DNA of 36,690 nt. Source: a virus. The stretch lies in UHGV virus genome UHGV-0304565, one strand, 5' to 3'. Positions 6,379 to 35,994 of this stretch are shown piece by piece. Numbering within the stretch: position 1 is the first letter of the stretch; the number at the start of each line of letters is the position of its first letter. A model generated the notes under the pieces. That model searched no databases. It was not told where the DNA came from and was given only the letters and a program-made list of their open reading frames with translations. A program made the translations under genes and the position numbers.

Positions 6379-6426
6379 TTTTAAAGCTCCTTTAAAGCGC
6401 CCATAGTGGGCGCTTGATTCCATTAA

Positions 6427-10552: not shown

Positions 10553-10572
10553 ATAAGTAAGTGATTACTTAG
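10553..10572. promoter_or_regulatory. ATAAGTAA-family motif with inverted repeat (AGTAA-gtga-TTACT) in the divergent intergenic region
   Basis: Read directly; adjacent TATAAT at 10548-10553. Confidence 0.4.
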
Positions 10573-14108: not shown

Positions 14109-14148
14109 AAAACAAGTTGGTTAGCAGATGCAGTAAACAAGTTGTTTT
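14109..14148. promoter_or_regulatory. Two tandem AAAACAA-G-TTGkTT palindromes upstream of the terminase genes
   Basis: Copies at 14109-14122 and 14134-14148, same family as the early-region operators. Confidence 0.45.
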
Positions 14149-14187
14149 AGAGCGCATGGACGCGCTCTGTGTGTTTTAGAGGGATCT

Positions 14188-16076: not shown

Positions 16077-16092
16077 GTAAGTAATTATCTAA
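16077..16092. promoter_or_regulatory. ATAAGTAA-family motif (GTAAGTAATTATCTAA) upstream of portal
   Basis: Read directly. Confidence 0.35.
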
Positions 16093-18586: not shown

Positions 18587-18611
18587 CATCTAAATCAAAG
18601 GGAATTGATAG

Positions 18612-19487: not shown

Positions 19488-19497
19488 TCAGTGTGGT

Positions 19498-19513
19498 AGA
19501 TAAGTAATTATCT
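19498..19513. promoter_or_regulatory. Palindromic ATAAGTAA-family motif AGATAAGTAATTATCT
   Basis: Perfect 5-bp arms GATAA/TTATC with 4-bp spacer. Confidence 0.4.
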
Positions 19514-19520
19514 ATGTTTA

Positions 19521-19548
19521 AGGGTGGGCTATACGCCCACCCTTTTTG
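19521..19548 (+). terminator. Intrinsic terminator after the major capsid gene
   Basis: Stem agggtgggc / gcccaccct, loop tatac, T5 run. Confidence 0.75.
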
Positions 19549-19560
19549 TAGGAGCAAGAA

Positions 19561-20481
19561 ATGCCAGAACAAAAGATGAAGATTACGGAAGAGGCATTTT
19601 CGGATTTTACGGGGCATATGTGCCGCGCCGGATTTACCAATTCTATCTCCGATGAACCTTTAACCGAGCGGCAACAAAGTCAGCTATCTGCTTGTTTGCA
19701 GGCGGTTCCCCTCTCCCAATCCGTAAACATAACCCCGGCTTCACCGTCAGTTTTGGTTGGGAAAACTGTTCAACTTAGTGCAGGTATTAGTATGGGTAAG
19801 AGTGCCAGTTCATTCACCTGGAAGTCAGCGAATGATCAAATTGCAACCGTTAACGGCACTGGATTAGTAACTGGTGTAGCACCAGGCAAAGTAAAAATTA
19901 CTGCAACTGATCAGGAAACCCAGCTTTCCGCGTCAGTGGAAGTCACCGTAAATCCGGTAGCCGTTCAATCCGTAACGGTAACGCCAGACTCAACCTCTGT
20001 TGAGAAAGGGAAATCAGTCAGTCTGAAAGCGAATGTTCAGCCGTCAAATGCGACGAATAAGGCTGTTACCTGGTCTTCAAAAAATGAAGATAAGGCAACG
20101 GTAGACCAGAGCGGGAACGTTACTGGTGTAGAAGTTGGCACTGCGACGATTGAGATCGTTTCCCAAGATGGCAGCAAAAAGGCAACTGCAACGGTGGAAG
20201 TAACTGCGCCTGTTGTGGCTGTTACCGCCGTCGAAATCGACCCAAATAGCACAACCGTTGAGGCAAACAAAACTGTTCAGCTGACCGCAAATGTCGAGCC
20301 GGCAGGAGCCACAAATAAAACCGTTACTTGGGAATCCAAAAATACCGAGTTTGCAACGATTGACAGCGAAACCGGTGTTGTAACTGGTGTTGCGGCTGGT
20401 ACTGCCACAATCGAGGTTACTACCCAAGATGGTAGCCACAAAGCGACAGCAACTGTAGAAGTTACTGCCGCACAGGAATAA
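19561..20481 (+). CDS. Ig-like (Big_2-type) domain protein with three tandem domains; probable capsid decoration protein
   Basis: Three repeats of the pattern V.V.P...V..G.T.QL.A.V.P..AT...VTW.S.N...ATV...G.VTGV..G.ATI....QDGS.KAT..VEVT. Confidence 0.65.
   Translation: MPEQKMKITEEAFSDFTGHMCRAGFTNSISDEPLTERQQSQLSACLQAVPLSQSVNITPASPSVLVGKTVQLSAGISMGKSASSFTWKSANDQIATVNGTGLVTGVAPGKVKITATDQETQLSASVEVTVNPVAVQSVTVTPDSTSVEKGKSVSLKANVQPSNATNKAVTWSSKNEDKATVDQSGNVTGVEVGTATIEIVSQDGSKKATATVEVTAPVVAVTAVEIDPNSTTVEANKTVQLTANVEPAGATNKTVTWESKNTEFATIDSETGVVTGVAAGTATIEVTTQDGSHKATATVEVTAAQE
19951..20466 (+). repeat. Intragenic tandem duplication (two ~258-bp Ig-domain units)
   Basis: Protein repeats 2 and 3 are also similar at nucleotide level. 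Confidence 0.5.
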
Positions 20482-20525
20482 CCGATATTGGGCGGCTTTC
20501 GCCGCCCAAGTGGAGAGAAAGCGTT

Positions 20526-20960
20526 ATGAAACCAGCAAAAATTGTTTTATTAGAACCGCAATTTTCCGGTTATTCGGGAATGTTGTGCGGCGTTCAGTTC
20601 GAGAACGGGGTGTCCGTAGCGGAGTTGCCTTTTATCGATCAGCAAAGGATTTGTGCCTCAATGCGAGCATCAACAGTCGAGGGCAAAAATGTTTCTCCGT
20701 CTGCCGCATACAGTGATCGTGGCGAGTTGGCCGCAGACCTGATTACCGAGCCAGCAGCACCTGACATTGTGCCAATGAAACGTGGGACACCAGATGAACC
20801 GGCCAAACAGATCCAGACTTTCACACGAGAAGAGTTGGAGTCAATTGCAGACAATGAAGGCATTGCCGGTCTACGTGTGATTGGTAATCAGGTTGGTGTC
20901 AAAGCGAAAGGAATTGTCGAGATGATTGAAGGCATCCTGAAAGCACAAGGCGGTGAGTAA
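20526..20960 (+). CDS. Hypothetical virion/head-tail protein (144 aa)
   Basis: GC hairpin 20488-20510 then SD ggagag; located within the structural module. Confidence 0.5.
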   Translation: MKPAKIVLLEPQFSGYSGMLCGVQFENGVSVAELPFIDQQRICASMRASTVEGKNVSPSAAYSDRGELAADLITEPAAPDIVPMKRGTPDEPAKQIQTFTREELESIADNEGIAGLRVIGNQVGVKAKGIVEMIEGILKAQGGE

Positions 20961-21793
20961 TGGCGCAGATCGACTCGTATCGTAGCGGTGAAGCTGTTTC
21001 CCTTTCATTTGCCTTCAACGTGCTGGATATCGAATCTGCTACCTACACAGTAAAGGACAGCACCGGGGCTATTCTCGTTGATGGCGAGCCGCTAGAAATT
21101 ACCAGCGGTCAAATGTCGATTCCGGTTGTCGTGTCGGCTGAATATAACCAGCTTTCTGAGAAAGAACGCGATCTGCGGTACGTCATTGTGAAGGCTGTTG
21201 CATCGGGTCTGACGCATGAAGAGCGGCAAATGTATGTTCTGCTGAATAGTTTTGAACTGTCGATACCAGAACAGTCGTTTGCAACTGTCGCTGATGCTCA
21301 AATGCAGGCGATCGATATGCTGAATGGGGACACTTTGCTGTCGGATGGTGAAGGCTTAATGCGCAAGCGTCTCATTGAGGCTACCAGACGAATTAAAACT
21401 TTACCGTTCTCAATCCGCAAAATTCTACGTATCGACTTTGACCGATACGATCGCCCTCAAAATATGCTGAATGTGTATGACATTCCGTGGGGAGCAGATG
21501 GAGCGTACCGGCATGATTTAGTCGATTGGGAAAAGATGACGCAGGAGAAGTTTGAAGAGTTCCCTGACTACTTCAAAGAAGCGTTGATGCTTGCCGTTGT
21601 CAACGAAGCGTGTGAGATCGCAAATGGCAATGATGTAGCCGCAGCACGAGAGGATGGCATTTTGTCAGAGTCCATCGGTGAAACAACCAACATGTACCGT
21701 ACCGGTAAAGCTGCAAACGTGCATGTGGCTCGTAGTACCTGGCGCTTGCTGGTCAGTTACATCAACAACCGTATGATTGTTCGCCGTGCGTAA
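20960..21793 (+). CDS. Hypothetical structural protein (277 aa)
   Basis: ATG overlaps the upstream stop; located within the structural module. Confidence 0.5.
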   Translation: MAQIDSYRSGEAVSLSFAFNVLDIESATYTVKDSTGAILVDGEPLEITSGQMSIPVVVSAEYNQLSEKERDLRYVIVKAVASGLTHEERQMYVLLNSFELSIPEQSFATVADAQMQAIDMLNGDTLLSDGEGLMRKRLIEATRRIKTLPFSIRKILRIDFDRYDRPQNMLNVYDIPWGADGAYRHDLVDWEKMTQEKFEEFPDYFKEALMLAVVNEACEIANGNDVAAAREDGILSESIGETTNMYRTGKAANVHVARSTWRLLVSYINNRMIVRRA

Positions 21794-21872
21794 CGCCAGT
21801 CGCATTATTTACTTTTGGTCTAAAGGGTTTTTGGCCAGTAATGAGAGCGACCGACAACAACAGGGAGAGAGC

Positions 21873-22217
21873 ATGAATATTTCATGGCAAACAGAAATTG
21901 CGATCTACCGCTTTGGCGCAAAGAACGTTTACGGTGAGGCGCAATTACAATTCGTCAGGAAGACGAATGTCGGCGTGGTTAAGTTCGAACAGAGTAATGA
22001 GAAATCGTCAGTTCGTGCTGATAGCTCTGGTAGTCGTGGTAAGGCGAGTCTGGAGCTGTTTGATGCTGTGTTAGTTGTCCCTTTGGAAGCGGCTGTACAA
22101 CTTGATGATGTACTGATCCTTGAAGGTCAAAAATTAAAGGTGTCCAGTGTTCATCGCCGCTGGGGGCTACGAGGAAGACCTGGGCATCTTGAAGTAGGGG
22201 CGAATATATGGGTCTGA
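21873..22217 (+). CDS. Hypothetical head-tail joining protein (114 aa)
   Basis: ORF track 21777..22217; ATG 21873 with SD gggagag preferred. Confidence 0.45.
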   Translation: MNISWQTEIAIYRFGAKNVYGEAQLQFVRKTNVGVVKFEQSNEKSSVRADSSGSRGKASLELFDAVLVVPLEAAVQLDDVLILEGQKLKVSSVHRRWGLRGRPGHLEVGANIWV

Positions 22218-22681
22218 AATACGATGCGCATCAGTTCAAACGTGCGGGGAATCGACTCAACAACAGCCAGAAAGCATTTAAGCGATATCTTATTCGGGAC
22301 ATGGAAAAGCTGGCGCGTTTGGTTGAGCGTCTCAGCCGTGCAATGGCCCCGCTGGAAACCGGATCTCTGGAGACAGCCATCTTTGCCAGGGTGATTAAAG
22401 AAGGTTATTCAGGGCTGCGTATTGAGCTTTCTGTGTCTGGAGCAAAACCACGTCAGGGGCATCCGGGCGTAGAAGTAGGTGACTATGCTAAGTACATGGA
22501 GCTGGGTAAATACCGACTCGGTTATCTTTCTCGAATGAAGAACGTGACAAACCCACCAATTGCCGGTGTTAAACCCCGTGTTGGGCCACACTTTCTGGAA
22601 AGAGCGGTGGAAATTAGCGAGAAGCAGTTCTCAGAAGCGATTCTTGAGGCTGCCAGAAAAGCCGGATTTACGAGAGGTTAA
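22208..22681 (+). CDS. HK97 gp10-like tail completion/head-tail adaptor protein (putative)
   Basis: Motif PLETGSLETAI resembles the D/ETGxLRxSI signature of that family; position upstream of the major tail gene. Confidence 0.45.
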   Translation: MGLKYDAHQFKRAGNRLNNSQKAFKRYLIRDMEKLARLVERLSRAMAPLETGSLETAIFARVIKEGYSGLRIELSVSGAKPRQGHPGVEVGDYAKYMELGKYRLGYLSRMKNVTNPPIAGVKPRVGPHFLERAVEISEKQFSEAILEAARKAGFTRG

Positions 22682-22682
22682 T

Positions 22683-23066
22683 GTGTTTATTGAAGCGTTT
22701 GCAAGTTTGATGCAGAAGGCAAAGATTGGCACGGTCGGGACTGACATTTTCTGTCACTACTTGCCTGCCAATGTGAAATCTGGCGTCCTGCTTATTAACC
22801 CAAATACCGGTATTAGCATCGATCATGAGCTACAGGGCTTTTATCTCGAATCATTCACAATCATTGTGCGTGGTTCGTCAATTACTACGACGGTTGAGAA
22901 AGCCAATAAAATCATTGAGATGTTTCCAGTAGAGGAAACGGAATCTGGTGGTGTTTATTTTCGACTTGTACGACCGATGGCGATGCCAATCATTTATCCC
23001 AAAAATGATGGGGCATTAATAGAAGCAGGCATTCCTGTTGAATTTGCTGGCTATTTATTGAATTAA
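22683..23066 (+). CDS. Tail terminator-like protein (putative, lambda U position)
   Basis: ORF track 22560..23066 overlaps the upstream gene by 120 nt; GTG 22683 (SD gagagg) or ATG 22710 are more plausible starts. Confidence 0.4.
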   Translation: MFIEAFASLMQKAKIGTVGTDIFCHYLPANVKSGVLLINPNTGISIDHELQGFYLESFTIIVRGSSITTTVEKANKIIEMFPVEETESGGVYFRLVRPMAMPIIYPKNDGALIEAGIPVEFAGYLLN

Positions 23067-23073
23067 CTCAATT

Positions 23074-23091
23074 AGTAAGTATATACTTACT
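23074..23091. promoter_or_regulatory. Perfect 18-bp palindrome AGTAAGTATATACTTACT (ATAAGTAA family)
   Basis: Read directly; 50 nt upstream of the major tail gene start. Confidence 0.4.
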
Positions 23092-23140
23092 ATTAGCGCA
23101 ATGAATGCGTAGAATTAACGGAAAAAGGAGTTTTCCATCA

Positions 23141-23887
23141 ATGTCTAATACCCATGTAAAAAACATCAAACTTGGTGCCTGTAAGGTGTCGTTTGGTGGT
23201 GTGGATTTGGGTTACACCAAAGGTGGTGTTCAGGTTGAAGTAGCCACTGAAACGCTGAAAGTCACCGTCGATCAGTTGGGGCAGACCGTAATTTCCGAAT
23301 TAGTTCAGGGGCGCAACATTACCATCACCGCGCCTCTGGCTGAGTCTGTACTCCAAAACATGGTTGACCTGATGCCTGGTTCTACTCTGAGCGAAGATGA
23401 CAGCTCTGTCACGATCACATCTGCACAGGGCGTTAACCTGATTGATGTGGCGAAGGAGCTGGTTCTGACTCCGCAGGACACCACCGACTATGTGTTGACC
23501 ATCCCGAAAGCGGCAACCGCGGGCAACTTCACTATGACCTACCAGTCTGATGATGTTCGTGTGTTCTCTGTTCAGTTCAGCGCATACCCGGATGATGAAG
23601 GCGTTCTGGGCAAAATGAGCGGCCCTAAACCGGTAAAAACTGTGTCGATCTCACCGGAATCTCCAACCGTAAAAGCTGGAGAAACTGTGCAACTGACAGC
23701 CGAAATCACTCCAGCTGATGCCGCAGACAAAACCGGTGTTTGGGAATCCGAAGATCAGGAAAAGGCCACGGTAGATCAAACGGGTCTGGTACGTGGTGTG
23801 GCGCAGGGTTCTACAAATATCTCCTTCACCAGCAATAGCGGTGGTAAGAAGGCAACTAAGTCAGTAACGATTAACCCCGCAGATTAA
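23141..23887 (+). CDS. Major tail protein with C-terminal Ig-like (Big_2) domain
   Basis: ORF track 23105..23887; ATG 23141 with SD aaaaaggag preferred. C-terminal segment matches the Big_2 pattern of the 19561 gene; same architecture as lambda V. Confidence 0.7.
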   Translation: MSNTHVKNIKLGACKVSFGGVDLGYTKGGVQVEVATETLKVTVDQLGQTVISELVQGRNITITAPLAESVLQNMVDLMPGSTLSEDDSSVTITSAQGVNLIDVAKELVLTPQDTTDYVLTIPKAATAGNFTMTYQSDDVRVFSVQFSAYPDDEGVLGKMSGPKPVKTVSISPESPTVKAGETVQLTAEITPADAADKTGVWESEDQEKATVDQTGLVRGVAQGSTNISFTSNSGGKKATKSVTINPAD

Positions 23888-23900
23888 TCAGTAATTAAGC

Positions 23901-23927
23901 AGAGGCTCAGGATGGGCCTCTCTTTTA
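23901..23927 (+). terminator. Intrinsic (probably partial) terminator after the major tail gene
   Basis: Stem agaggc (23901-23906) / gcctct (23916-23921), T-run 23923-23926. Confidence 0.55.
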
Positions 23928-23942
23928 AAAGGATTTTAACCA

Positions 23943-24260
23943 ATGACCAAATTACTCGATCTCGATTCCATTCTGCCTCCGAAGAAAAGCATCAAATTTG
24001 GCGGTCAGGAATATCCCATCGTTGAAATGACGGTAGGTCTGTTCGTTTCCATCAAGCAGATGGAAGGTAAAGATCTCATGAACATGTCTCCTGTTGAGCA
24101 AGTGACAGCTTATGCAGATCTGGTTCGTAAGGTTATCCCTTCAGTACCTGACGAAGTTCTTGAAAAACTGACTGTTCCGCAACTCCAGCAGATCTTCACC
24201 TTCGCTATGGAAGTGATTGATGAAGAAAACGAAAAAGCGGCTGGCGAAGGGGCAAAGTAA
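23943..24260 (+). CDS. G: Tail assembly chaperone (lambda G-like)
   Basis: 105-aa acidic protein between major tail and tape measure genes. Confidence 0.65.
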   Translation: MTKLLDLDSILPPKKSIKFGGQEYPIVEMTVGLFVSIKQMEGKDLMNMSPVEQVTAYADLVRKVIPSVPDEVLEKLTVPQLQQIFTFAMEVIDEENEKAAGEGAK

Positions 24261-24610
24261 TTTCCCGCGATGAATCCGGGACAAGGACCGTCTCAATAGA
24301 TCTCGGATTCTATTTCAGTCGTGTAGTTGCTCACTACGCCGTGTCGCCATTAGAGCTACTGAACGTTCCTCTCACGATGTTCTGGATGCTCAGTCGCAAT
24401 ATAGACCGTCTGCGTGCGGAAGAGGATGTCCGCAACTTACAAGTCGCTCGTGCGTCCCAGGCGGATGGCGAGGCTGTGAAGGCGTTCATGGAGGGTTTGC
24501 AACTCAGGATTGGAAGACCAGTCGTAACAGATAAAGTCTACGATCCAAGCCAGGATAAGGCAGACCCTGACGCCAAAGAGCAACTGATGCAAATATTTGG
24601 CAGAGGATGA
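23943..24610 (+). CDS. Tail assembly chaperone GT-like fusion made by a programmed -1 frameshift near 24231-24260
   Basis: The -1 frame is open from 24224 to 24610 and overlaps the end of G; candidate slip sites gAAAAAg (24231-24237) or AAG-TAA (24255-24260). Confidence 0.5.
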
Positions 24611-24617
24611 CAAGGGA

Positions 24618-27600
24618 ATGTCACAAAACGTAGAGTTTATCCTGTCGCTGGAAGACAAACAGTTTACAGCGTCAATCGATCGTGCGGGGAAACTGCTTAC
24701 TCGATTTGGTGAGCAGGTAACAAAGCCTGCTCAAAAAATCCAAACCTTTGAACGCTCTTTGGGTTCGGTCGCCCGTATTATTGGCGTTCTGGAAAGCAAG
24801 CTCGATTCTACGGCAGATAAACTACAGGATGTAGCTGCCGGTTTTGAGCTTGCTTCAGATGCTACGCGTAAAATGCGTGGCAACATCACCAGCCTCAATT
24901 CTGGTCTTAAAGCCCTGATTGAGCGCGTCGATACGACAACTTCTTCAGTAGATAAACTCACCGCGTCATTACGTAAAGTGCAATCAGAGCTAAATGATTT
25001 CTCTGATTGGGCGACCTATGCAAGCAAAAGCGCAAGCCGCTTTGGTACGGAGGTCAAAGAAGCCTCTGCGTCCGTGAGTGGCATGAATACGCGTCTTAAT
25101 GCCACGACGAAGCGACTCAGTAATTGGGGTGTCACAACGAGTCAGGCTGCCGAGGGACTGAAAAAGGTTCGTGAGCAGATGGACGAAGTTATCGGACGTC
25201 AGCAACTGATTAGCAAGCCGGTACGCGTTCGTACATCTGGAAGTGGCGATGGTGGTAGCGGGCGGCGTAGCGGCGCTTCTGGCCATAGCGGTAAAAGTAA
25301 CGAAGGAGGTATGTTCTCTGGCCTTCGTGGCAACATTTTCCTGCTTGGCGAGATCGGAGATGCAGCCAGAACGGTTACTGACATCATGTTTGGGTGGCAG
25401 AAGCCTATTGTTGAAGCTGCGGCCGAAATGGAACGTATGCGGGTGATGCTTCGAGGGTTGAATAAGGAGAAGTCCAACCCGGGCCAGGCTGCCGCTGATG
25501 ATATGAAGTACATCGTAGACATGGCTCAAAATGCGCCGTTCGCGATGCAGGCGTTAACAGACTCCTTCGTGAAGTTTCGTTCTGCTGGCTTAGATCCAAC
25601 CGATGGTTCTCTGAAGGCGCTGGTGGACTCCGTTGCTCGTTTTGGTGGTGATAGTGAGCTGTTGAAACGTGCGGCTGTGGCCGTTCAGCAGATGTCCGGT
25701 AAGGGCGTTGTGTCAATGGAAGAGCTACGTCAGCAATTAGGTGAAGCCGTTCCTAACGCGATGCAGGCAATGGCAGACGCCGCAGGCATCACTATGGGGG
25801 AACTAACTAAAGCCGTTGCCAGCGGTACGGTTGAGGCAAAGCAGGCGTTGTCTCTGATGTTTGTTGGTCTGCGTGCGGAGAACGAGAACGCAGCGAAAGA
25901 CATGATGCAAACCTACACAGGTGCGCTGGCGCAACTTCAGACGTCATTCACGTTATTTGCTGATCGAGTTGGTCAGGCTGGATATCTGGATTCTCTATCA
26001 AAGGGGATGAAAGAACTGGCTTCAATCATGAATAGCGCCGAAGGGATTTCGTTTGCCAATTCTTTAGGTTCGGGGTTAACGACGGCAATCGATGGGTTGC
26101 GTCAGCTTGCTCAATGGTTAGCAAAGAACCAAGAGCTGGTAATTAATCTCGGTAAGGTCGTGGCCGCGATGGTTGCGTTCAAACTGATGCGAGCAGGGAT
26201 CATGGGGGTAGTTGGCGCTGGCAGCCAGATGGTTAGCACCTTTGCCACGATGGCGACCGCCATACAGACTCCATTTAACCTCGGCGCTACAGCAGTAACT
26301 CGATTCAATCGTGCGGCACGTATGGGGTTGGCTCCGATCCCCTCTCTTATTTTCGCCATCCGTGGGGCGATTACGGGGCTTAAAGGTGCTTTTGCAGGAT
26401 TAACGGCGTTCATTGCAGCAAACCCTATAGGGGCAGCATTTACAGTTGCCACTGTAGCTGTTGCTGGCCTAATCACGTACATGACCATGCTCCGCAGCGA
26501 AACTTCAAAGGTCGTTGACGAGATTAGGAAAATACCAGAAGCGATGACAGCGGCCAAACGTGCACAAATGGCCGACCGCGCAGAAAAGCTCGAAAAGCAG
26601 ATTCTTGCTGATCAACGAGCATTAAAAACTGGTGAGGGTGTTAATTACGTATCTAACTCTGCCGGTGTTATTACTCACAAAGAGTCGAAGGCTGACATCG
26701 AAGCTCGCCTGAAAAAAAATCAGGAAGAGTATCAAAAGATAACCGGCACGATAGCTCTTGGTGACGGCGCTGTAGCAAAGCGTTTGGCTAAAGAGGCTGC
26801 CGAATCTCAGATTGAGAAAATTCGAGCGGAAAACCAGATTTTCGCGGCAACATTCGTGAAGGCCCGGCAGGAGGCTCTGGAGAAGATCCAGAAAATCAAT
26901 GATGACAGTTCACTTTCAGATGATGAAAAGAACAAGCTATTGGCACCGTTACGTGAAACGGTAAACAAAAGCTATCTGGAGCCTGCGCAAAAACTGGTTG
27001 ATTCACTTTCTTCTCGTAAGAATGCGACCGAGAAGCAAATCGCGACTCTTAATGATCAGCTTGAAAAAGCCAAAAAGGATGGAAATACCGAGCAGATCCA
27101 GAAACTGCAAGGCAGTATTCGTGGTTATCAGGAGCATTTGGAAACCGTTGCTCAGGAACTGACTCAGGCAGAGTTCGAGAGAGATAACGCGGCCAAAACT
27201 GGTAAGGGCGTGATGTCAAACCAGGGGACTGTTCTTGGGTTAGGTACAACTGATAAAGCTGCTCAGAAGGCGCTGGCGCAATATATGCGAAACCAGATGG
27301 ATTCTGCGACTTATCAGCGTACTTTGCCTGACGGCACTCCGATGATGGACTTCGAAGGTAAGCCTATTATTGGGCCTAAACAACTCAAGACGCAGCTTAA
27401 TTTGCAGAAAGCATCCAGTGCCAGCTCTCTGGAGAAAATGAGCGATGAAGAGCGTGCCGCAGCCATTGCTGCACTGACTAAAGCTCGTGAACAGGATGCC
27501 GCAGCCGCCGAGAAAGCCGCCCAACGATCAGCTAATGCTTCGCAGCGTGCGGCCAAGAAGGAACAGGCAGCGCAACAGAAACTGGCAGCCGGATACCAGA

Positions 27601-29189
27601 AGGCTCTGGACAAAGCCGATCAGCTTATGGGGCAAATGGGTGAAAGCTCTAAGGCTACGGTATCGTTTGATCAGTCTCTTCGCGATACAACGAAATCGCT
27701 GACAGATTTGGCTAATGCGGTTCCTAACGAGTTCATCACTCAAGAGATGATCGACAAGGCGAAAAAACGTCTTGAAGACCTCAAAAATGCGACACCTGAA
27801 TATCGCGAGATGTTTAATCGCCGCAATGTTGAGCAGATGATCTCCACTTGGGCACCGGAGGCGGATTCCATTATTAGTGCTGGCTATACGCCGTCTCGCG
27901 AAGAGAAAGTTGCTGATTTCGAAGACACCTACAACCGCAATCTCAAAGCGTTGATAGAACTTCGTGATAAGGCGTCTGATCCTAAAGTTGTGGCGCTTTA
28001 TACAAAGAAAATCAATCAACTGATTGCTGCTGGCAATACCGCGCTCATTAAAGAGACAGGGACTGCGACGCAGAAGTTGGCACTGGAATACGAAAACCTG
28101 GCAGAGCAGATCGAAAGCACCTGGACTGACTTGTTTAGTGGCTTAACGGATGTCCTGACTGATTTCGTTATTAACGGGAAGATGAGCTTCTCCAGCCTGT
28201 CTCAGTCCATTTTGAAAGATATCACCAATATGGTCGTGAAGTCGCAGATCACGCTGCCTCTAATGAACATGTTGGGGATGGGAACCACCGCAGCTGGTAG
28301 TTCACAGAGTGGTAATTTGCTCACCGGGGTTGCTTCCGCAGTTGCCAATCAAGGTGTGCGCATAAGCAACACTGTTAATGGCGACAAGTCGGTAGGAGAA
28401 GCCACGAAGGAGACGTCCAGTTCGGTAACTGGATTGGGGCAAACGACACAGCAGACCACCAGCGCAATTGGCACAGCAACAAATGCGATTGGTAGCTGGG
28501 TATCAGGGCTATTTGATAGCACCGAAGCCAAAGATGCTGAGACAAAAGCAGTGAAGGATTCCATCTTCTCGATGCAGAACCTCAGCTCTGTTACCGGTGC
28601 TCTGTCTGCCGCGTTTGCAATGCTTGGAGCTAATGCTTCCGGCTCTGGTAATAAGTGGTTGAATTTCGGCGCGACAGTTGCATCTGGGTTGGTTTCAGTA
28701 TGGGCAGGTGGTGGATTCGATGGATTGATGTCCGGTTCTTCTGGCTCAACTTCCGGGTTCAACAATCTGACCAGTTCTGCTGCCGATGGCACGAATGGTA
28801 TTCCTGCAATTCCGAAGTTTGCAAATGGTGGCATATTCGGAAAAGACGGCGTGATCCCGCTCCGGGCATACCAGAAAGGCGGTATCGCCAACTCACCTCA
28901 ATTGGCGTTGTTTGGGGAAGGCGATATGAATGAGGCGTATGTTCCATTGCCTGATGGTCGAACAATCCCTGTAACGCTCAGTACCGATGGTATGAGTGGA
29001 GGAGGAAATGTTCTTTCTCCGGTATCAATTGAGATCAACGTCCATAGTGACGGTAGCACAACTGAATCCGGCGATACAGAAAGCATATGGAACAATGCCG
29101 CTCAACGGATGAAAGCAATCGCGCTTGAGACTATCGCTCAAGAGAAACGCCCTGGCGGATCACTCAACCCAAACACTCAACGTAACTAA
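24618..29189 (+). CDS. Tail tape measure protein (about 1523 aa)
   Basis: Very long alanine-rich helical protein with a hydrophobic central segment; position after G/GT. ORF track starts at TTG 24597. Confidence 0.85.
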   Translation: MSQNVEFILSLEDKQFTASIDRAGKLLTRFGEQVTKPAQKIQTFERSLGSVARIIGVLESKLDSTADKLQDVAAGFELASDATRKMRGNITSLNSGLKALIERVDTTTSSVDKLTASLRKVQSELNDFSDWATYASKSASRFGTEVKEASASVSGMNTRLNATTKRLSNWGVTTSQAAEGLKKVREQMDEVIGRQQLISKPVRVRTSGSGDGGSGRRSGASGHSGKSNEGGMFSGLRGNIFLLGEIGDAARTVTDIMFGWQKPIVEAAAEMERMRVMLRGLNKEKSNPGQAAADDMKYIVDMAQNAPFAMQALTDSFVKFRSAGLDPTDGSLKALVDSVARFGGDSELLKRAAVAVQQMSGKGVVSMEELRQQLGEAVPNAMQAMADAAGITMGELTKAVASGTVEAKQALSLMFVGLRAENENAAKDMMQTYTGALAQLQTSFTLFADRVGQAGYLDSLSKGMKELASIMNSAEGISFANSLGSGLTTAIDGLRQLAQWLAKNQELVINLGKVVAAMVAFKLMRAGIMGVVGAGSQMVSTFATMATAIQTPFNLGATAVTRFNRAARMGLAPIPSLIFAIRGAITGLKGAFAGLTAFIAANPIGAAFTVATVAVAGLITYMTMLRSETSKVVDEIRKIPEAMTAAKRAQMADRAEKLEKQILADQRALKTGEGVNYVSNSAGVITHKESKADIEARLKKNQEEYQKITGTIALGDGAVAKRLAKEAAESQIEKIRAENQIFAATFVKARQEALEKIQKINDDSSLSDDEKNKLLAPLRETVNKSYLEPAQKLVDSLSSRKNATEKQIATLNDQLEKAKKDGNTEQIQKLQGSIRGYQEHLETVAQELTQAEFERDNAAKTGKGVMSNQGTVLGLGTTDKAAQKALAQYMRNQMDSATYQRTLPDGTPMMDFEGKPIIGPKQLKTQLNLQKASSASSLEKMSDEERAAAIAALTKAREQDAAAAEKAAQRSANASQRAAKKEQAAQQKLAAGYQKALDKADQLMGQMGESSKATVSFDQSLRDTTKSLTDLANAVPNEFITQEMIDKAKKRLEDLKNATPEYREMFNRRNVEQMISTWAPEADSIISAGYTPSREEKVADFEDTYNRNLKALIELRDKASDPKVVALYTKKINQLIAAGNTALIKETGTATQKLALEYENLAEQIESTWTDLFSGLTDVLTDFVINGKMSFSSLSQSILKDITNMVVKSQITLPLMNMLGMGTTAAGSSQSGNLLTGVASAVANQGVRISNTVNGDKSVGEATKETSSSVTGLGQTTQQTTSAIGTATNAIGSWVSGLFDSTEAKDAETKAVKDSIFSMQNLSSVTGALSAAFAMLGANASGSGNKWLNFGATVASGLVSVWAGGGFDGLMSGSSGSTSGFNNLTSSAADGTNGIPAIPKFANGGIFGKDGVIPLRAYQKGGIANSPQLALFGEGDMNEAYVPLPDGRTIPVTLSTDGMSGGGNVLSPVSIEINVHSDGSTTESGDTESIWNNAAQRMKAIALETIAQEKRPGGSLNPNTQRN

Positions 29190-29231
29190 CTATCGACTGC
29201 CCCGACCGGGGCAGTCTCACAAGGATGTGAG

Positions 29232-29567
29232 ATGGAAAGACAAACGTTTAATTGGTATCCAGATTACGAATCTGAAAAAAGCGTAAAACCGAATGTAACG
29301 ATACTTAATTTTGGTGATGACTACGAGCAACGACAGGCTCAAGGTCTTAATCGTATTAAAGAAGAATGGTCGCTAACCTTTACCAGACCATACAACGAAA
29401 TTAATGCAATCGATGACTTCCTGACTGAGCGAGCAGGCGTTGAGTCGTTCTATTGGGTTAATCCAAGAGGAAAACGGATTGTAGTTGTATGCGACAGTCA
29501 TACGGTCAAGCGATATCAAGGGTACGCTGTATTAACCGCTCCATTCAGACAAGTATTTGAGGCTTAA
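29232..29567 (+). CDS. M: Minor tail protein M
   Basis: Size and pattern (FGD.Y.QR...GLN ... FL.E..G...F.W..P) match lambda M as I recall it; GC hairpin 29195-29216 upstream. Confidence 0.75.
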   Translation: MERQTFNWYPDYESEKSVKPNVTILNFGDDYEQRQAQGLNRIKEEWSLTFTRPYNEINAIDDFLTERAGVESFYWVNPRGKRIVVVCDSHTVKRYQGYAVLTAPFRQVFEA

Positions 29568-29575
29568 GTATCTGG

Positions 29576-29596
29576 ATAAGTAAGTACTAATTTAAT
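29576..29596. promoter_or_regulatory. ATAAGTAAGTACTAATTTAAT motif (late-region family)
   Basis: 15 of 19 positions match 35929-35949. Confidence 0.4.
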
Positions 29597-29649
29597 ATTA
29601 TTGTGGCGCTGACAGGATGTTAGCGCCTACTTATTTCAAGGATGAAACA

Positions 29650-30348
29650 ATGGGAATAAAAGCTGATATTCAGAGCTTATCTCCCTCTGCACTCATTGAG
29701 TTGTTCGTACTGGATATGTCGAACACAACTTCAGGGGGGAAGCTATTCTTCCACGCCGGAACAAACGAACTGATGCAACCGGTTGTCTGGCAAGGAGTGA
29801 CATACGAGCCGTGGCCAATCAAAGCATCAGGCTTTGACAAAACGGGTCAGGGAACGTTACCACGTCCAAAAATTCAGGTATCGAACTTTGCCGGAACCGT
29901 CTCTGCGGAAGTTCAGGCAAACGACGATCTTGTTGGCTGCCGCATTATTCGCAAGATGACGCTGGCTCGCTTCCTCGATGCCGTTAATTTTAAAGATGGC
30001 AACCCAACAGCAGATCCAAACCAACATTTCCCGGATGAAATGTGGTTTATCGAACAGAAAACTCTCGAAACTCATCAGGTTGTCGAGTTTGAATTGTCCA
30101 GTGTGTTCGATTTGATGGGGGTGCAACTGCCGTATCGTCAGATCATTAAAAACACCTGCCCGTGGAAATACCGAGGGCCAGAATGCGGCTATACCGGCCC
30201 ATATTTCGACAAAAATAACCAGCAGACGTCTATGTCTGGTGCTGATTACTGCACAAAACGTTATGACGCCTGTAATGCGCGTCGGAATTATTTTGCCAAC
30301 GGAGTGATCCATTTTGGCGGATTTATTGGAGCTACGCGGTATGGGTAA
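29650..30348 (+). CDS. L: Minor tail protein L
   Basis: ARFLDAVNF, WQG, CGYTGP and FGGF segments match lambda L; ATG 29650 with SD aagga preferred over track start 29617. Confidence 0.8.
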   Translation: MGIKADIQSLSPSALIELFVLDMSNTTSGGKLFFHAGTNELMQPVVWQGVTYEPWPIKASGFDKTGQGTLPRPKIQVSNFAGTVSAEVQANDDLVGCRIIRKMTLARFLDAVNFKDGNPTADPNQHFPDEMWFIEQKTLETHQVVEFELSSVFDLMGVQLPYRQIIKNTCPWKYRGPECGYTGPYFDKNNQQTSMSGADYCTKRYDACNARRNYFANGVIHFGGFIGATRYG

Positions 30349-31138: not shown

Positions 31139-31719
31139 TTCATGTGCAGCTTGGCGGCCCTATGGCCAAACATTTTGGCCGCCACTGGCATCTAAAGGTG
31201 CGTAATACAAAACAGGCTCTGGATTTAATTGAGGCTAACAAGCCTGGGTTTAAAGCATGGATGAAGCGCAACATCAAAACCTATGACAGATACCACATCC
31301 AGATCACCAATAAACAGGGTCACAAGTGGTCTGTGGACGAGAGTGAATATCAGATGATGGGGCAGTCTGACAACATTGCCAAAATACGCATTACCCCTGT
31401 TCCGCGAGGGAGCGGCGGATCTGCTTTTGGGTGGTTTCAGACGGTAGTAGGGGCCGCTTTGTTGGTTGTATCGGCGGTAATGATGCCTGCTTTAGCACCT
31501 CTCGGTTTGTCACTGATGATGGGCGGTATATCACAAATCATATCGCCGCAAGCCACTAACGAAAGTGTGAGGCAAGCGGATAATTCGAACTCATATTATT
31601 TCGACGGCCCTCAAAATACAGAAAACCAGGGAAACCCAGTACAACTTATCTACGGCGAGGAAATTCTGGTTGGCTCACAGGTTGTGAGTTCTTCAATCAC
31701 GATTGACCAGCTAATGTAA
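31126..31719 (+). CDS. I: Tail assembly protein I-like
   Basis: GTG start with SD gggag, overlaps the end of K; position between K and J; hydrophobic segment mid-protein. Confidence 0.6.
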   Translation: MSELVHVQLGGPMAKHFGRHWHLKVRNTKQALDLIEANKPGFKAWMKRNIKTYDRYHIQITNKQGHKWSVDESEYQMMGQSDNIAKIRITPVPRGSGGSAFGWFQTVVGAALLVVSAVMMPALAPLGLSLMMGGISQIISPQATNESVRQADNSNSYYFDGPQNTENQGNPVQLIYGEEILVGSQVVSSSITIDQLM

Positions 31720-31737
31720 ACAAGGATTTTTTTGAAC

Positions 31738-34700
31738 ATGGAACAGTTCAAGAAGAAAAAGTTACCGCTGTTTATTGCCGGTGCGGGTGGTAAAAAAAGC
31801 AGCAAAAGCTCTAGCCGTACACCGGTTGAAGCCGACGATACCGTAAATTCTCGTGCAATGGCCGCTATCCTCGATCTTCTTGGGGAAGGTGTAATTGGCG
31901 GCTTGGTAAATGGCGCAAGATCTATTTTTATCGACGATCTGCCGATTGTAAATGAAGACGGTTCCTCCAACTTCAGCGGAATCACATGGGATTTTCGCGA
32001 CGGTTCGCAAGACCAGACTCCAATGTCTGGCTTTGATTTTGTCGAAACGCCTAAATCCGTCAATATCCAGTTAAAAAAAACACATTATGTAACGGTTTCA
32101 ATCGATAACGATGAAGCTGATCGGGTTCGTGTCATCATGAAGTTTCCTTCTTTGCGAAGCATAGATAAAAAAACTGGTGACACGAACGGTACAACCGTTG
32201 AGTACAAGTTCCAGATAGCAAATGGCGACTCAACATTTGTAGATGTGGTCGCAGAAGGTGAAAAAAGCGTTGGCATTAAGCTAACTGCAAAGAAGACAGG
32301 TGTTTATTACCGTAGCTATGAGCTGAAGCTGTCTAAGCCTGGACGCGCGTACAAGGTTCGTGTAGTCCGTATTACCGATGATAACAGCAGCCAGTATCTC
32401 TATAACGATACATGGGTGGACTCAATAGGTGAGATTGTAGATACACCGATGAACTACCCAAACTCTGTGCTGGTGGGGCTGAAGGTTAATTCTGAGCAAT
32501 TTGGTAGCACCATGCCATCTCGTTCGTATTTGGTGCGTGGATTAAAAATTCGCGTGCCGTCAAACTACAACGAGGCCAGCAACACTTATGATGGTGTATG
32601 GGATGGCACTTTTAAGCTGTTGTCTTCTTCAAACCCTGCGTGGATTCTCTTTGATTTGCTTACCAATGCTCGATATGGCCTTGGTCAGTATGTGTCGGAA
32701 TCTATGATTGACCTCGGCCAGCTATACCAGATCGGTCGATATTGTGACGAAGAGGTTGATGATGGCTTTGGTGGTAAAGAGAAACGCTTTGCAATCAATA
32801 CGCAGATCACCAGTCGACAGGACGCATACCGATTAATTCAGGATATTGCCGGTGCATTCCGCGGTATGGTGTTTTGGGCTGGTGGCATGGTTAACATCAT
32901 GCAGGATAGTCCATCAGATCCGGTAATGATGTTTACCAACTCCAACGTCAAAGATGGACTGTTTACCTATAAAGGTTCTGCGCGTAAAGATCGCCCATCC
33001 GTTGCGCTCGTAACCTACAACAACAAGGAGGACGGTTATAAGCAAAACATCGAGTACGTTGAAGATCAGGACGCAATGCGCCGTTATGGTGAGCGTAAAA
33101 CAGAAGTCGTAGCATTTGGATGTACAAGCCGAGGCCAGGCTCACCGAGTTGGTTTGTGGCTTTTGTATACCGCCAGAATGGAGTCGGATGTAATTACATT
33201 TACTGCCGGTTTAGACGCCTCATTTCTGATGCCCGGTGAAACCGTTCTGATTCAGAACAAATATCGTGCAGGTAAACGTAACTCCGGTCGAATTGTGGAG
33301 TTTACCAAAAACAGCATCACTCTCGATGCGCCTGTGTCGTTAGCTAAAAGCGGCAGCTTTATTCGGATATTGAATCAGGAAGGCAAAATCGTTGAACGCG
33401 ATGTTCTTGAAACTGGCGAAAACATAACAAAGGTTACGTTTTCAAAAGCTCTGTCGTCAGCGGAAACGCCTGTTTTGAACGGTGTCTGGACAATTACAGA
33501 ACCAGATCTCGAACCTATGCGCGTTCGCATCGTTAACATCGCGCAGGGGGAAACGCCGGGTAGCTTTGACATCACCGCTGTTGAGAACAATCCGTCTAAA
33601 TATGAGGCGATTGACAATGGTGCAACGCTTATCCCGCAGAATACGACGGTATTGGACCCGACTTACTCCAAGCCGTCTAATTTGCAAATCACCGAAGGGA
33701 CTTATCTCTCAAGCCCAGGCAACCTGTCAGTAAAACTGACTGCAACATGGGAAGGGAAATCTCCAGAGTATTGGATCAGTTGGCGACGTTCTGATGAAAA
33801 CAATGTATCGAACTGGCAATCGGCGCGTGTAACCGAAGAGCAATACGAAATCGTTAATGTTGCGGAGAATGGACGCTACGACTTCCAGCTGTATGCGGTT
33901 TCATTCAACGGTAAAAAAACAGAGATTATCAGTACCGTTTATCAGGTGCTGGGCACAATGACACCGCCAGATGCTCCAACGTCATTAACGGCCGTTGGAG
34001 ACTATCGTAATGTGATACTGAATTGGGTTAATCCAGATTCGGTAGACCTTGATCACATTAATGTTTACGCATCCCAGACCAACAATCTGGATACAGCGAA
34101 ACTGATCGCAGAGTCTGCAAGCACCACCTTTACACATGCTGGTCTTGGGGATAGCGAAACGTGGTATTACTGGGTTCGAGCATCGAACAAGCGAGGTATG
34201 TTAAGTCCTCCGAACTCAAACTTGGGGACAGAGGCGACAACTCGCGATGTACTGTCGTTCCTGACAGGCAAAATTACGTCTTCTGAACTTGGCCAGGCTT
34301 TACTTGAGGAAATCGACTCAAAAGTATCTCAGGAGGCGGTGGATTCCATCTATGAACAGATGGATGAAAGTCTGAAAAGCCTTGATGACAAGTTTACAGA
34401 GACAGATCGGCGGCTTGAAGAAGCTCAAAACGATCTTAAAACGGATGTTTCCAGTACTGTAAGCAAGGTGGAAGACGCTCTTAAGGAAGTTGAAAACTCT
34501 AACGCTGCTTTAATTCAGTTGCAGGAAACTGTATCAGAGCAGGGCAAAGCTGTAGCTGGAGCTGTTGAGGCGGCAAATGCAGCACTTGACAATTCATCGG
34601 CTTTAATCGCGGAGGAACGTGAAGCACGAGTTGAGGGTGACTTGGCAAACGCGAAAGAAATTGAGGCGATGAAGTCAACTGTAGATAGCAGTTTAGCCAC

Positions 34701-35898
34701 CATTGAAGAAATGAAAAAAACCGTGGCTGAAGTTGAGCGTTCCAGTGCCGAAGTGACAACAAACATTGAGGCATTGGCTAAAACAAACATCGATCTTGCT
34801 TTGCGTCAGGATGAAGATCAGCACAAGCAGATGGTGAGTAATGCGAAGATCACCACAACTCAGAAGGCTTTTGCAGACGATATATCTGCAATGGCTACGA
34901 AAATGGAAGAAATTCGCGCTGAAATAAATGAGGATATCAGAGCTTCAATCACTGAAGAAACAACGGCTCGTGTAGATGCTGATAATGCTATTGCAAGCAG
35001 AATCACCAAACTTGAATCAAAGATTAACGATGATATTTCTGCCGCAATTGTGAGTGAACAAGAGGCACGAGCTAGTGCCGATGAAGCACTTTCAAAAGAA
35101 ATACTATCGTTACAAGCCAAAATTGAAGGCGATATTAGTGCAGCTATATCTGAAGAAAAAATTGCCCGAGCAACTGCTGATGAATCTTTAGCACAACAGA
35201 TAACCACATTGAAGAGCCAGACGGGTAAAGATATTAAGGCGGCTGTAGCAGAAGAGACGAAAGCCAGAACTGACGCTGATTCGGCTTTGGCTTCTAGTAT
35301 CACTAATCTACAGGCGCAAACGAGCAAAGATATTAATGCCGCGATTACGTCTGAGGCGACTGTGCGCACAAACGCCGACAATGCTCTAAGTGGACGAATT
35401 GACACCTTAAAAGCATCAGTTGATGGAAATACAGCGACAATTCAAGAGCAGGCAACTGCTATTGCTGATACTAACAAAAAGGTTTCAACCGCGTGGACGT
35501 TGAAGATGGAAACGTCAACAAGTGGTGGGCAAAAATATGTCGCAGGTATTGCGCTTGGAATTGACACCACGGGGCTTTCCCAGTTTTTGGTGCAAGCAGA
35601 TCGATTTGGTCTAGTCAACTCAGTTAACGGAAAGATCACCACACCATTTGTTATCGAAAACAGCGTTGCATACATGAATGGTGCGTATATTAAGGATGGT
35701 ACTATCACAAATGCAAAGGTAGGTGACTTGCAATCAACAAACTTCGTAAGCGGACGAGCCGGATGGCGATTTGGTAAAAATGGAACGCTTGAGATCAACG
35801 GCAATAGTGGCGGCAATGGGAGATTGGTTATAAATGGTCAGAGGATTGACGTTTATGATGACAATAATGTCCTTCGAGTTAGGATTGGTCAGCTTTGA
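31738..35898 (+). CDS. J: Host specificity protein J (central tail fibre/tip attachment protein)
   Basis: Multiple segments match lambda J (YPN..LVG..V.SEQFGS, VPSNYN, WDGTFK, AFGCTSRGQAHR.GLWL, KITxSxLGxxLLE, YVAGIxL...LSQFLV). Contains a long coiled-coil insert and lacks the lambda C-terminal domain. Confidence 0.9.
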   Translation: MEQFKKKKLPLFIAGAGGKKSSKSSSRTPVEADDTVNSRAMAAILDLLGEGVIGGLVNGARSIFIDDLPIVNEDGSSNFSGITWDFRDGSQDQTPMSGFDFVETPKSVNIQLKKTHYVTVSIDNDEADRVRVIMKFPSLRSIDKKTGDTNGTTVEYKFQIANGDSTFVDVVAEGEKSVGIKLTAKKTGVYYRSYELKLSKPGRAYKVRVVRITDDNSSQYLYNDTWVDSIGEIVDTPMNYPNSVLVGLKVNSEQFGSTMPSRSYLVRGLKIRVPSNYNEASNTYDGVWDGTFKLLSSSNPAWILFDLLTNARYGLGQYVSESMIDLGQLYQIGRYCDEEVDDGFGGKEKRFAINTQITSRQDAYRLIQDIAGAFRGMVFWAGGMVNIMQDSPSDPVMMFTNSNVKDGLFTYKGSARKDRPSVALVTYNNKEDGYKQNIEYVEDQDAMRRYGERKTEVVAFGCTSRGQAHRVGLWLLYTARMESDVITFTAGLDASFLMPGETVLIQNKYRAGKRNSGRIVEFTKNSITLDAPVSLAKSGSFIRILNQEGKIVERDVLETGENITKVTFSKALSSAETPVLNGVWTITEPDLEPMRVRIVNIAQGETPGSFDITAVENNPSKYEAIDNGATLIPQNTTVLDPTYSKPSNLQITEGTYLSSPGNLSVKLTATWEGKSPEYWISWRRSDENNVSNWQSARVTEEQYEIVNVAENGRYDFQLYAVSFNGKKTEIISTVYQVLGTMTPPDAPTSLTAVGDYRNVILNWVNPDSVDLDHINVYASQTNNLDTAKLIAESASTTFTHAGLGDSETWYYWVRASNKRGMLSPPNSNLGTEATTRDVLSFLTGKITSSELGQALLEEIDSKVSQEAVDSIYEQMDESLKSLDDKFTETDRRLEEAQNDLKTDVSSTVSKVEDALKEVENSNAALIQLQETVSEQGKAVAGAVEAANAALDNSSALIAEEREARVEGDLANAKEIEAMKSTVDSSLATIEEMKKTVAEVERSSAEVTTNIEALAKTNIDLALRQDEDQHKQMVSNAKITTTQKAFADDISAMATKMEEIRAEINEDIRASITEETTARVDADNAIASRITKLESKINDDISAAIVSEQEARASADEALSKEILSLQAKIEGDISAAISEEKIARATADESLAQQITTLKSQTGKDIKAAVAEETKARTDADSALASSITNLQAQTSKDINAAITSEATVRTNADNALSGRIDTLKASVDGNTATIQEQATAIADTNKKVSTAWTLKMETSTSGGQKYVAGIALGIDTTGLSQFLVQADRFGLVNSVNGKITTPFVIENSVAYMNGAYIKDGTITNAKVGDLQSTNFVSGRAGWRFGKNGTLEINGNSGGNGRLVINGQRIDVYDDNNVLRVRIGQL
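34924..35418 (+). repeat. Five tandem ~99-bp (33-aa) repeats inside J
   Basis: Protein repeats of the pattern DI.AAI..E...R..AD.AL...I..L.A... Confidence 0.65.
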
Positions 35899-35928
35899 TT
35901 GTGGAAAAAAATAATCATTTCTGTAAAA

Positions 35929-35994
35929 ATAGGTAGGTACTAACTTAATGGTGGGCATGGAACGCCCACCATATCTAGGAGCAAAGGATAAATG
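35929..35994 (+). promoter_or_regulatory. Late regulatory module: ATAGGTAGGTACTAACTTAAT motif, GC hairpin (35950-35970), SD aggag, ATG
   Basis: Same architecture as 19498-19563 (motif, GGTGGGC/GCCCACC hairpin, TAGGAGCAA SD). Confidence 0.45.

Follow-up and report, generated by a model that had tools for sequence, protein, structure and literature searches.

Hairpins in the late gene spacers of an SSU5-like phage-plasmid

The 36,690-nucleotide viral genome UHGV-0304565, which was analysed over its whole length and is referred to here as the window, carries a long plus-strand array of late genes, and an original prediction had placed a GC-rich hairpin immediately upstream of the Shine-Dalgarno (SD) sequence of four of them. 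Nucleotide identity over positions 18500-30000 (98.4% to Escherichia phage CMS-2020a, 97.7% to phage Cyrano, which is the phage-plasmid pLF82, and 80.6% to Salmonella phage SSU5) identifies the window as an SSU5-like phage-plasmid. All four hairpins were found, with coordinates at most 1-3 nt off the earlier values, and the late gene order was read off the annotated relatives. The hairpins and the genes between which they lie are as follows.

19520-19544, with U-tract to 19547, plus strand: hairpin 1 (site 1), AAGGGTGGGC/TATAC/GCCCACCCTT, 10 bp, -19.1 kcal/mol
20488-20509, plus strand: hairpin 2 (site 2), 9 bp, loop TTTC, -17.5 kcal/mol, no U-tract
29195-29216, plus strand: hairpin 3 (site 3), 9 bp, loop GACC, -18.0 kcal/mol, no U-tract
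35948-35972, plus strand: hairpin 4 (site 4), 9 bp, loop AUGGAAC, -15.8 kcal/mol
14188, 14820, 16103 and 17699, plus strand: late genes terS, terL, portal and scaffold, respectively
18612-19487, plus strand: major capsid gene
19561-20481, plus strand: immunoglobulin (Ig)-like head-decoration gene with three Big_2 domains, a variable cassette between hairpins 1 and 2
20526, plus strand: gp7, followed by connector and tail genes
23887 and 29189, plus strand: ends of the tail tube gene and of the tape measure gene, respectively
29232, plus strand: gene M, followed by L, K, I and J (J ends at 35898) and by the fibre gene at 35992

Hairpin 1 lies 32 nt past the stop of the major capsid gene (19487). 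The other three are spaced as follows from the preceding stop and the following ATG: hairpin 2, 6 nt from the Ig-like stop and 16 nt from the ATG at 20526; hairpin 3, 5 nt from the tape-measure stop and 15 nt from the ATG of gene M; hairpin 4, 49 nt from the stop of gene J and 19 nt from the ATG of the fibre gene. The gap between stem and ATG is thus 15-19 nt at all four sites, so that the stems end about 2-7 nt before the SD; the placement just upstream of the SD holds, whereas the spacing of 5-15 nt first given for it does not. Both the SD and the AUG are outside the stem at every site. Scanning the window for perfect GC-rich hairpins with stems of 8 bp or more yields 19 matches at 11 loci, versus 1.4 +/- 1.4 in 100 dinucleotide shuffles, and those with 9 bp or more number 10 versus 0.5; the perfect 9-10 bp GC stems reported in these intergenic spacers are therefore far above chance. 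The spacer folding z-scores of sites 1-4 are -4.75, -3.54, -4.89 and -2.06, respectively.

Site 1 alone has a U-tract, as had been stated: a T5 run (19543-19547), reading TTTTTG directly 3' of the stem, which appears as a T5-6 run in the relative variants inspected. The tails of sites 2, 3 and 4 (GTGGAGAG, TCACAAGG and ATCTAGGA) hold 1-2 T within the first 8 nt. At sites 2 and 3 a U-tract is absent in all relatives examined, and TTTT follows the site 4 stem in a few relatives only. A simple terminator scan flagged only site 1, with a truncated stem, and a scan of the whole window with Rfam 15 gave no match at the gathering threshold. In agreement with the earlier reading, the GGTGGGC/GCCCACC stem and the TAGGAGCAA context of the SD are found at both site 1 and site 4. 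A test for dispersed repeats, i.e., repetitive extragenic palindromes (REP), bacterial interspersed mosaic elements (BIME) or elements like miniature inverted-repeat transposable elements (MITE), failed: the stems differ among sites, a 7-nt arm is common to sites 1 and 4 only, and the stems at one site also vary between relatives, unlike in a REP/BIME or MITE-like repeat.

Conservation and covariation of the stems

For the conservation analysis the four spacers were taken from at most 80 related viral contigs each, together with four annotated phages. The GC hairpin is kept in 49 of 51 distinct relative sequences at site 1, in 23 of 27 at site 2, where 11 different 5' arms occur, and in 24 of 26 at site 3, where 14 different 5' arms occupy the same place. 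At site 3 the helix is recovered by RNAalifold, with double-sided changes in seven of eight pairs; pairing reaches 89% compared with 39-53% in slid registers, and double-change cells number 49 versus 22.6 in shuffles, none of 500 shuffles being as good. Pairing at site 4 is 93% compared with 25-46% in slid registers, and three stem pairs covary. At site 2, MAFFT/RNAalifold called no structure because 3- and 4-nt loops shift the stems out of register, and conservation was obtained there by a structure-anchored count instead.

Within the stems, 19 sequences have an isolated G·T mismatch and 3 an isolated A·C mismatch, counted per sequence and not per independent event. Since a G·T pair is compatible only with folding of the plus strand as RNA, this excess of G·T over A·C reveals the folding strand, and the comparative sequence evidence identifies the hairpins as selected plus-strand RNA structures. 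At sites 2 and 3 the loops are free to vary and are found in either orientation (TTTC/GAAA and GACC/GGTC), arguing that only the stem matters at these sites and that nothing reads the loop. The inversion of these two loops (20497-20500 and 29204-29207) among close relatives is in itself a signature of strand-switch inversion at perfect DNA palindromes.

The hairpins are anchored to stop codons

The Cyrano genome was assembled as a stand-in for the whole element in genome-wide hairpin counts. It contains 37 perfect GC hairpins, 34 of which are intergenic, though the genome is 87% coding. In 21 spacers between co-directional genes, the median distance from the upstream stop to the hairpin is 16 nt (at most 19 nt in 14 of the 21), whereas that from the hairpin to the next start is 68 nt, with extremes of 15 and 759 nt. 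Hairpins of minus-strand genes are likewise anchored to their own stop codons, and about half of the Cyrano hairpins have T-rich tails and the look of ordinary terminators. By their position, the late-operon hairpins belong to this genome-wide population of gene-end hairpins, and they abut the next SD because the late spacers that hold them are only 42-93 nt long. The idea of a single device placed upstream of the SD, as put forward in the original prediction, is not supported in view of this anchoring.

Gene content in the capsid–gp7 interval gives a further argument. In relatives this gap measures either 79-101 nt, with no gene, or about 340, 550, 780 or 1042 nt, which defines the Ig-like gene as a cassette; the gene itself is absent or about 250-950 nt long. 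In relatives without the cassette, hairpin 1 still directly follows the capsid gene and is succeeded by either a site 1-type or a site 2-type SD context, and hairpin 2 is present or absent together with the cassette. Since hairpin 1 stays with the capsid gene whatever follows, it belongs to the 3' end of that gene, and hairpin 2 to that of the cassette. Both possible deletion joints at the hairpins flanking the Ig-like cassette occur in relatives.

A predicted gene-end terminator and probable decay barriers

The interpretation that we favour, with a probability of roughly 0.55, takes the four hairpins for plus-strand stem-loops that stand where late cistrons end, define and protect mRNA 3' ends, and are of mixed type. 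A GC stem-loop after the stop codon is present at all four sites and an immediate U-tract at site 1 only; by sequence definition, site 1 is a canonical intrinsic terminator and, as proposed earlier, the only one among the four, sites 2-4 lacking the U-tract. Sites 2-4 have the sequence features expected of a decay barrier, namely a stable U-less hairpin at a cistron boundary that is conserved in relatives. A barrier to 3' exonucleases is the most likely function of sites 2 and 3, since they resemble the U-less protective hairpins mapped in E. coli operons, where stable stem-loops without a U-tract mark and protect 3' ends within operons and at Rho-dependent ends and are conserved (PMC5927463, PMC6061677). 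By analogy with these protective hairpins, a stability element, one of the functions initially suggested, is the best reading for these two sites.

For termination, exonuclease blocking and their effects on expression, we infer the following scheme. Hairpin 1 would act as a terminator or attenuator just past the capsid gene, where partial termination would leave head-gene mRNA in excess over the downstream message. Hairpins 2, 3 and probably 4, having no U-tract, would most likely terminate E. coli RNA polymerase inefficiently, and would instead block 3'-to-5' exonucleases (PNPase, RNase II) once the transcript has been cut or has stopped further downstream. In this way the late transcript, of roughly 22 kb, would be split by stability into head genes, Ig cassette, connector-to-tape-measure genes, tail tip and fibre. 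The capsid and tail-tube genes are the two late genes directly followed by a hairpin with an immediate run of at least four U; the tail-tube protein, given its role as the tube subunit, is presumably made in high copy number, and terminator-type elements after these two genes would enrich their messages.

Several points weigh against this interpretation. The tape measure and J proteins are low-copy, and stabilizing their messages serves no obvious need. Hairpins 2 and 3 begin 5-6 nt past the stop, so that terminating ribosomes must melt them, which could point to a translational role. A simple barrier leaves unexplained the GGA loop that is conserved at site 4 and in three hairpins absent from the initial list, and a 5' protection of the downstream cistron, of the papBA type, would give the same sequence picture. 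As to transcript data, the single paper with Cyrano RNA sequencing gives gene-level values in lysogens only, and a literature search for a Cyrano or SSU5 late transcript map and for papers on capsid-gene terminators returned nothing usable.

A class of GGA-loop hairpins and possible CsrA binding

While the four hairpins initially listed are all real, the list itself proved incomplete. Folding of the other late spacers revealed three further, imperfect hairpins with one G·U pair each, at 14148-14169, 23901-23921 and 29605-29627, which form a GGA-loop class together with site 4. They are listed below with two small hairpins at the SD sequences of genes M and L, which are compared with known sites of the host protein CsrA, among them ligands obtained by in vitro selection (SELEX).

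14148-14169, plus strand: GGA-loop hairpin before terS, GAGCGC/AUGGAC/GCGCUC, 18 nt before the terS ATG
23901-23921, plus strand: GGA-loop hairpin after the tail tube gene, loop CAGGAUG, one U·G pair, tail CUUUU
29605-29627, plus strand: M-L spacer hairpin, 10 bp, ACAGGAUGU at the tip, one G·U pair, U-rich tail
29217-29230, plus strand: small SD hairpin of gene M, UCACA/AGGA/UGUGA, with the SD in the loop; ACAAGGAUGU matches the CsrA SELEX core
29633-29648, plus strand: weak SD hairpin of gene L, UUUC/AAGGAU/GAAA, with the SD in an ANGGAN-type hexaloop

The hairpin at 23901-23921 is separated by 13 nt from the tail-tube stop and by 21 nt from the next ATG, that of the tail chaperone gene. The hairpin at 29605-29627 ends 22 nt before 29650, the likely start of gene L. 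This start is likelier than 29617, with an SD, AAGGA, at 29638-29642, 7 nt upstream of 29650; SSU5 and PhiR41_1 are annotated with the equivalent of 29650, and Cyrano with the equivalent of 29617. A start at 29650 makes the hairpin wholly intergenic. One relative, L114 (IMGVR_UViG_2711768037_000009), has the M-L hairpin swapped for a tandem GGTGAT repeat.

The loop of the terS hairpin contains GGA in 20 of 21 distinct relative sequences (AAGGAU in 11; also AUGGAC and AAGGAA), with compensatory changes in the stem. GGA is kept in 26 of 28 distinct sequences of the hairpin after the tail tube gene, whose stem covaries from GAGGCUC to GAGGCCC; (A/G)CAGGAnGU is kept in 42 of 47 at the M-L hairpin; and the site 4 loop GGA (35959-35961) is kept in 15 of 16 aligned relatives, where the AAGGAU(A) form occurs. 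The gene M SD hairpin is 96% paired with one covarying pair, its SD being displayed and not hidden, and the gene L SD hairpin is 97% paired and almost invariant. The loops of sites 1-3 (UAUAC, UUUC and GACC) are without GGA. Judged by loop conservation, the four hairpins are thus not the single class implied by the original prediction: the GGA loop is conserved at site 4 and not at sites 1-3.

We regard it as possible, if only tentatively, that site 4, the hairpins at 14148, 23901 and 29605, and the M and L SD hairpins, to the exclusion of sites 1-3, are operators for a GGA-specific protein, for which host CsrA would be the simplest candidate. A dimer on the loop GGA would bridge to an SD GGA about 20-25 nt downstream, and translation of terS, the tail chaperone, the tip proteins and the fibre would be repressed or tuned. 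The conservation of GGA while the stems covary is in line with such a role. The known rules for CsrA sites comprise the CsrB repeat CAGGA(U/A/C)G, the SELEX consensus RUACARGGAUGU and the ANGGAN hexaloop (reviewed in PMC7652899), and the loops CAGGA(U/A/C)G, ACAGGAUGU and C-AAGGAU-G match the CsrB repeat, the SELEX core ACA..GGA..GU and the hexaloop. In the glgC model, a hairpin site is combined with an SD site, and CsrA bridges 10-63 nt (PMC7652899). Both the layout and the spacing found here fit this model: site 4 has, besides its loop GGA, more GGA in the SD region (35978-35980 and 35986-35988) within the bridging range, and GGA is in the loop at 14148, 23901, 29605 and 29217 as well. In Cyrano, upstream hairpins with a GGA loop make up 4 of 8 in the late operon and 0 of 9 elsewhere, and all four end 18-22 nt before the ATG. 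The strict motif ACA.?GGA.GT occurs four times on the plus strand of the window and never on the minus strand, versus 1.1 expected (p about 0.03). A precedent is the lysis gene of the SOS-induced plasmid operon ColE7, which CsrA is known to repress.

Other observations speak against CsrA-type operators. GGA is also the core of the SD, so that its exposure in a loop could reflect a standby site for ribosomes or a relic. Looser CsrA motifs are not enriched over the window (CARGGATG, 3 versus 2.1 expected; RTACARGGATGT with at most two mismatches, 4 versus 7.2), and the window taken by itself supports the hypothesis weakly. The stems are longer and more stable than those of typical SELEX ligands, and several of the GGA hairpins have U-rich tails after stop codons, like plain terminators. 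A search for literature on CsrA control of phage late genes found none. Among the four hairpins first listed, the hypothesis of CsrA-type binding concerns site 4 only.

As another conceivable hairpin binder, we considered a full-length FljA-family protein encoded in the window (7375-7896, minus strand; PF03614, repressor of phase-1 flagellin, E = 1e-68). FljA-type proteins are known repressors of host fliC mRNA translation, and the E. coli fliC leader has a GGAA-loop hairpin upstream of its SD; host fliC is the simpler target, and the protein is kept as a remote lead only. A phage-plasmid with a FljA-type protein may silence host flagellin.

A dispersed 18-bp palindrome beside sites 1 and 4

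The likeness of sites 1 and 4 includes, on the upstream side, an 18-bp palindrome (consensus TAGGTAAGTACTTACCTA), of which the window holds four copies (at 10554, 16074, 19497 and 35930) versus 0.01 expected by chance. These are listed with one variant and one degenerate copy.

10554-10571: palindrome copy heading the long array of plus-strand genes, directly abutting a TATAAT hexamer
16074-16091: palindrome copy at the terL/portal junction, its first TAG being the terL stop codon
19497-19514: palindrome copy between the capsid gene stop and hairpin 1
35930-35947: palindrome copy directly abutting hairpin 4
23073-23092: variant perfect palindrome TAGTAAGTATATACTTACTA, upstream of the tail-tube gene
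29573-29594: degenerate palindrome copy in the M-L spacer, a near-perfect palindrome in Klebsiella relatives

Cyrano has 14 palindrome copies with at most three mismatches, 13 of them in spacers, the exception (3528) being near the end of the portal gene. The copies often start at or just past a stop codon and precede both replication-type and structural genes, and at three places (5444, 22449 and 67884) the 5' arm of a GC hairpin follows 1-7 nt past the palindrome's end. A weaker copy is found in the promoter region of a putative repressor gene (Cyrano 42604). A hand count of mismatches in the Cyrano copies gives seven G·T versus eight A·C, i.e., no strand bias, and the absence of a G·T excess argues against an RNA-level reading of the palindrome. 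From its sequence, the palindrome is probably a DNA site for a dimeric protein or regulator, and could be either an operator or an activator site. A TAnnnT hexamer resembling a -10 element stands at a fixed offset in only 8 of the 14 copies (hand count). In P1 late promoters, a 9-bp inverted repeat at -22, bound by Lpa, is combined with a 4-nt spacer and a TAnnnT -10 hexamer. A homologue of P1 Lpa was not found: the best tblastn E-value was 0.39, and BLASTP against the open reading frames of the window gave nothing.

The two sets of elements could be combined in one scheme. Operators for CsrA or another GGA-specific protein would be the M and L SD hexaloops and the GGA-loop hairpins that precede four genes (terS, tail chaperone, L and fibre), and the palindrome, which stands upstream of several of these hairpins, would mark a separate, DNA-level regulon with operator or activator sites heading each module. 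We consider this combined scheme rather doubtful.

Other explanations of the hairpins

It appears unlikely that the hairpins serve the downstream cistron, either as 5'-terminal protective stem-loops of the papBA type, exposed by an upstream RNase E cut, or by insulating the ribosome-binding site. The late-operon hairpins do all end 15-22 nt before an ATG, and an RNase E-like motif, AU↓AUU, adjoins hairpin 2. However, hairpins follow the upstream stop and not the next start genome-wide, and the position of hairpin 1 is constant whichever gene comes next. Moreover, the motif at site 2 was the only RN↓WUU motif beside the hairpins and is absent in SSU5; as a lead to RNase E cleavage it was dropped as too weak.

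Improbable, too, is that all four hairpins are functional terminators or attenuators, overcome in the lytic cycle with help from a phage or host factor. In favour of this, the hairpins are located at module boundaries, beside a palindrome that may bind a regulator; site 1 is canonical, and UUUU follows the site 4 stem in some relatives. Yet E. coli RNA polymerase needs a U-tract for intrinsic termination, sites 2 and 3 are without one in every relative examined, and no antiterminator was identified.

A role at the DNA level, as cruciforms, protein sites or recombination joints for cassette exchange, is very unlikely. It would agree with the loop inversions, which show strand-switch events at DNA palindromes, and with the bounding of the Ig cassette by hairpins 1 and 2, for which both kinds of deletion joint exist. 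The 19 versus 3 bias of G·T over A·C is, however, strand-specific and fits RNA only, and the stem sequences differ freely among relatives at one site, which leaves no conserved site for a sequence-specific protein.

Finally, RNase III processing sites or coupling devices that occlude the SD, as forms of the RNA processing elements and coupling devices offered in the original prediction, scarcely deserve consideration: the location is intercistronic, as is that of the RNase III sites of T7, but the stems are 9-10 bp without extension, too short for RNase III, which needs roughly two helical turns (about 20 bp), and SD occlusion is excluded because the SD and AUG are outside all four stems.

Further elements in the window

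Just upstream of the terS hairpin are two direct copies of AAACAAGTTG (14110-14119 and 14135-14144), the second of which extends to a 13-bp palindrome, AAACAAGTTGTTT; the element is conserved in relatives and may be a promoter, an activator site or a packaging-related site. A hairpin sequence, AGCGCCCATAGTGGGCGCT, occurs twice in the early region, at 5900-5918 and 6395-6415, about 500 nt apart, and the copy at 5900-5918 has T-runs on both sides and the look of a bidirectional terminator. The tape-measure coding sequence contains, in its 5' part, an 8-bp hairpin with an 8-nt loop (24710-24733) that is also present in Cyrano.

Implications and comparison with known systems

Gene-end terminators and decay barriers would add one more case of a long phage late transcript tuned to differing protein copy numbers. 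This is not surprising, and its use would be in the annotation and engineering of SSU5-like phage-plasmids, which spread resistance genes in Enterobacteriaceae. The analysis also provides rules by which hairpin types can be separated by sequence, namely anchoring to stop versus start codons, free versus conserved loops, and the bias of G·U versus A·C mismatches. If the GGA-loop class does bind CsrA, the host's global post-transcriptional control would reach phage morphogenesis genes, and translation of packaging, tail-tip and fibre proteins would be coupled to the physiological state of the host.

The hairpins are of known kinds, i.e., a terminator, probable decay barriers and possibly a CsrA-type operator. 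T7 offers a known case of an intrinsic terminator or attenuator past the major capsid gene (T-phi, after gene 10), and phiX174 has weak intercistronic terminators. Site 1 resembles these in its GC stem and U5 after the most abundant structural gene, with a second such element after the tail-tube gene, and differs from them in the 18-bp palindrome between stop codon and hairpin. In the moron concept of Hendrix, gene cassettes in mosaic phage genomes are bounded by terminator hairpins; likewise, the Ig-like gene and its 3' hairpin 2 are present, absent or length-variable between capsid and gp7, yet no promoter of its own was identified for this cassette. The palindrome is dispersed over many intergenic sites and has 9-bp half-sites, resembling P1 late promoters and the dispersed P1 C1 operators, and its AAGTACTT core partly resembles the 9-bp P1 -22 repeat AAGTnACTT (AAGT/ACTT core). 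Unlike the P1 -22 box, its spacing is off by one base with the central base absent, and it also precedes replication-type genes.

CsrA operators are resembled by site 4 and the three added hairpins, which have a loop GGA with matching flanks and a second GGA at the SD 20-25 nt downstream. They differ in stems of 8-10 bp instead of at most 4 and in their location in a phage late operon, and sites 1-3 lack GGA altogether. The closest counterparts of sites 2-4 are stem-loops of the malE-malF type (Dar & Sorek 2018; PMC5927463, PMC6061677), which are likewise stable, U-less, placed at cistron boundaries, conserved and present several times per operon; most of the E. coli examples, however, lie inside the downstream coding sequence, whereas those of the phage fill the intergenic spacer.

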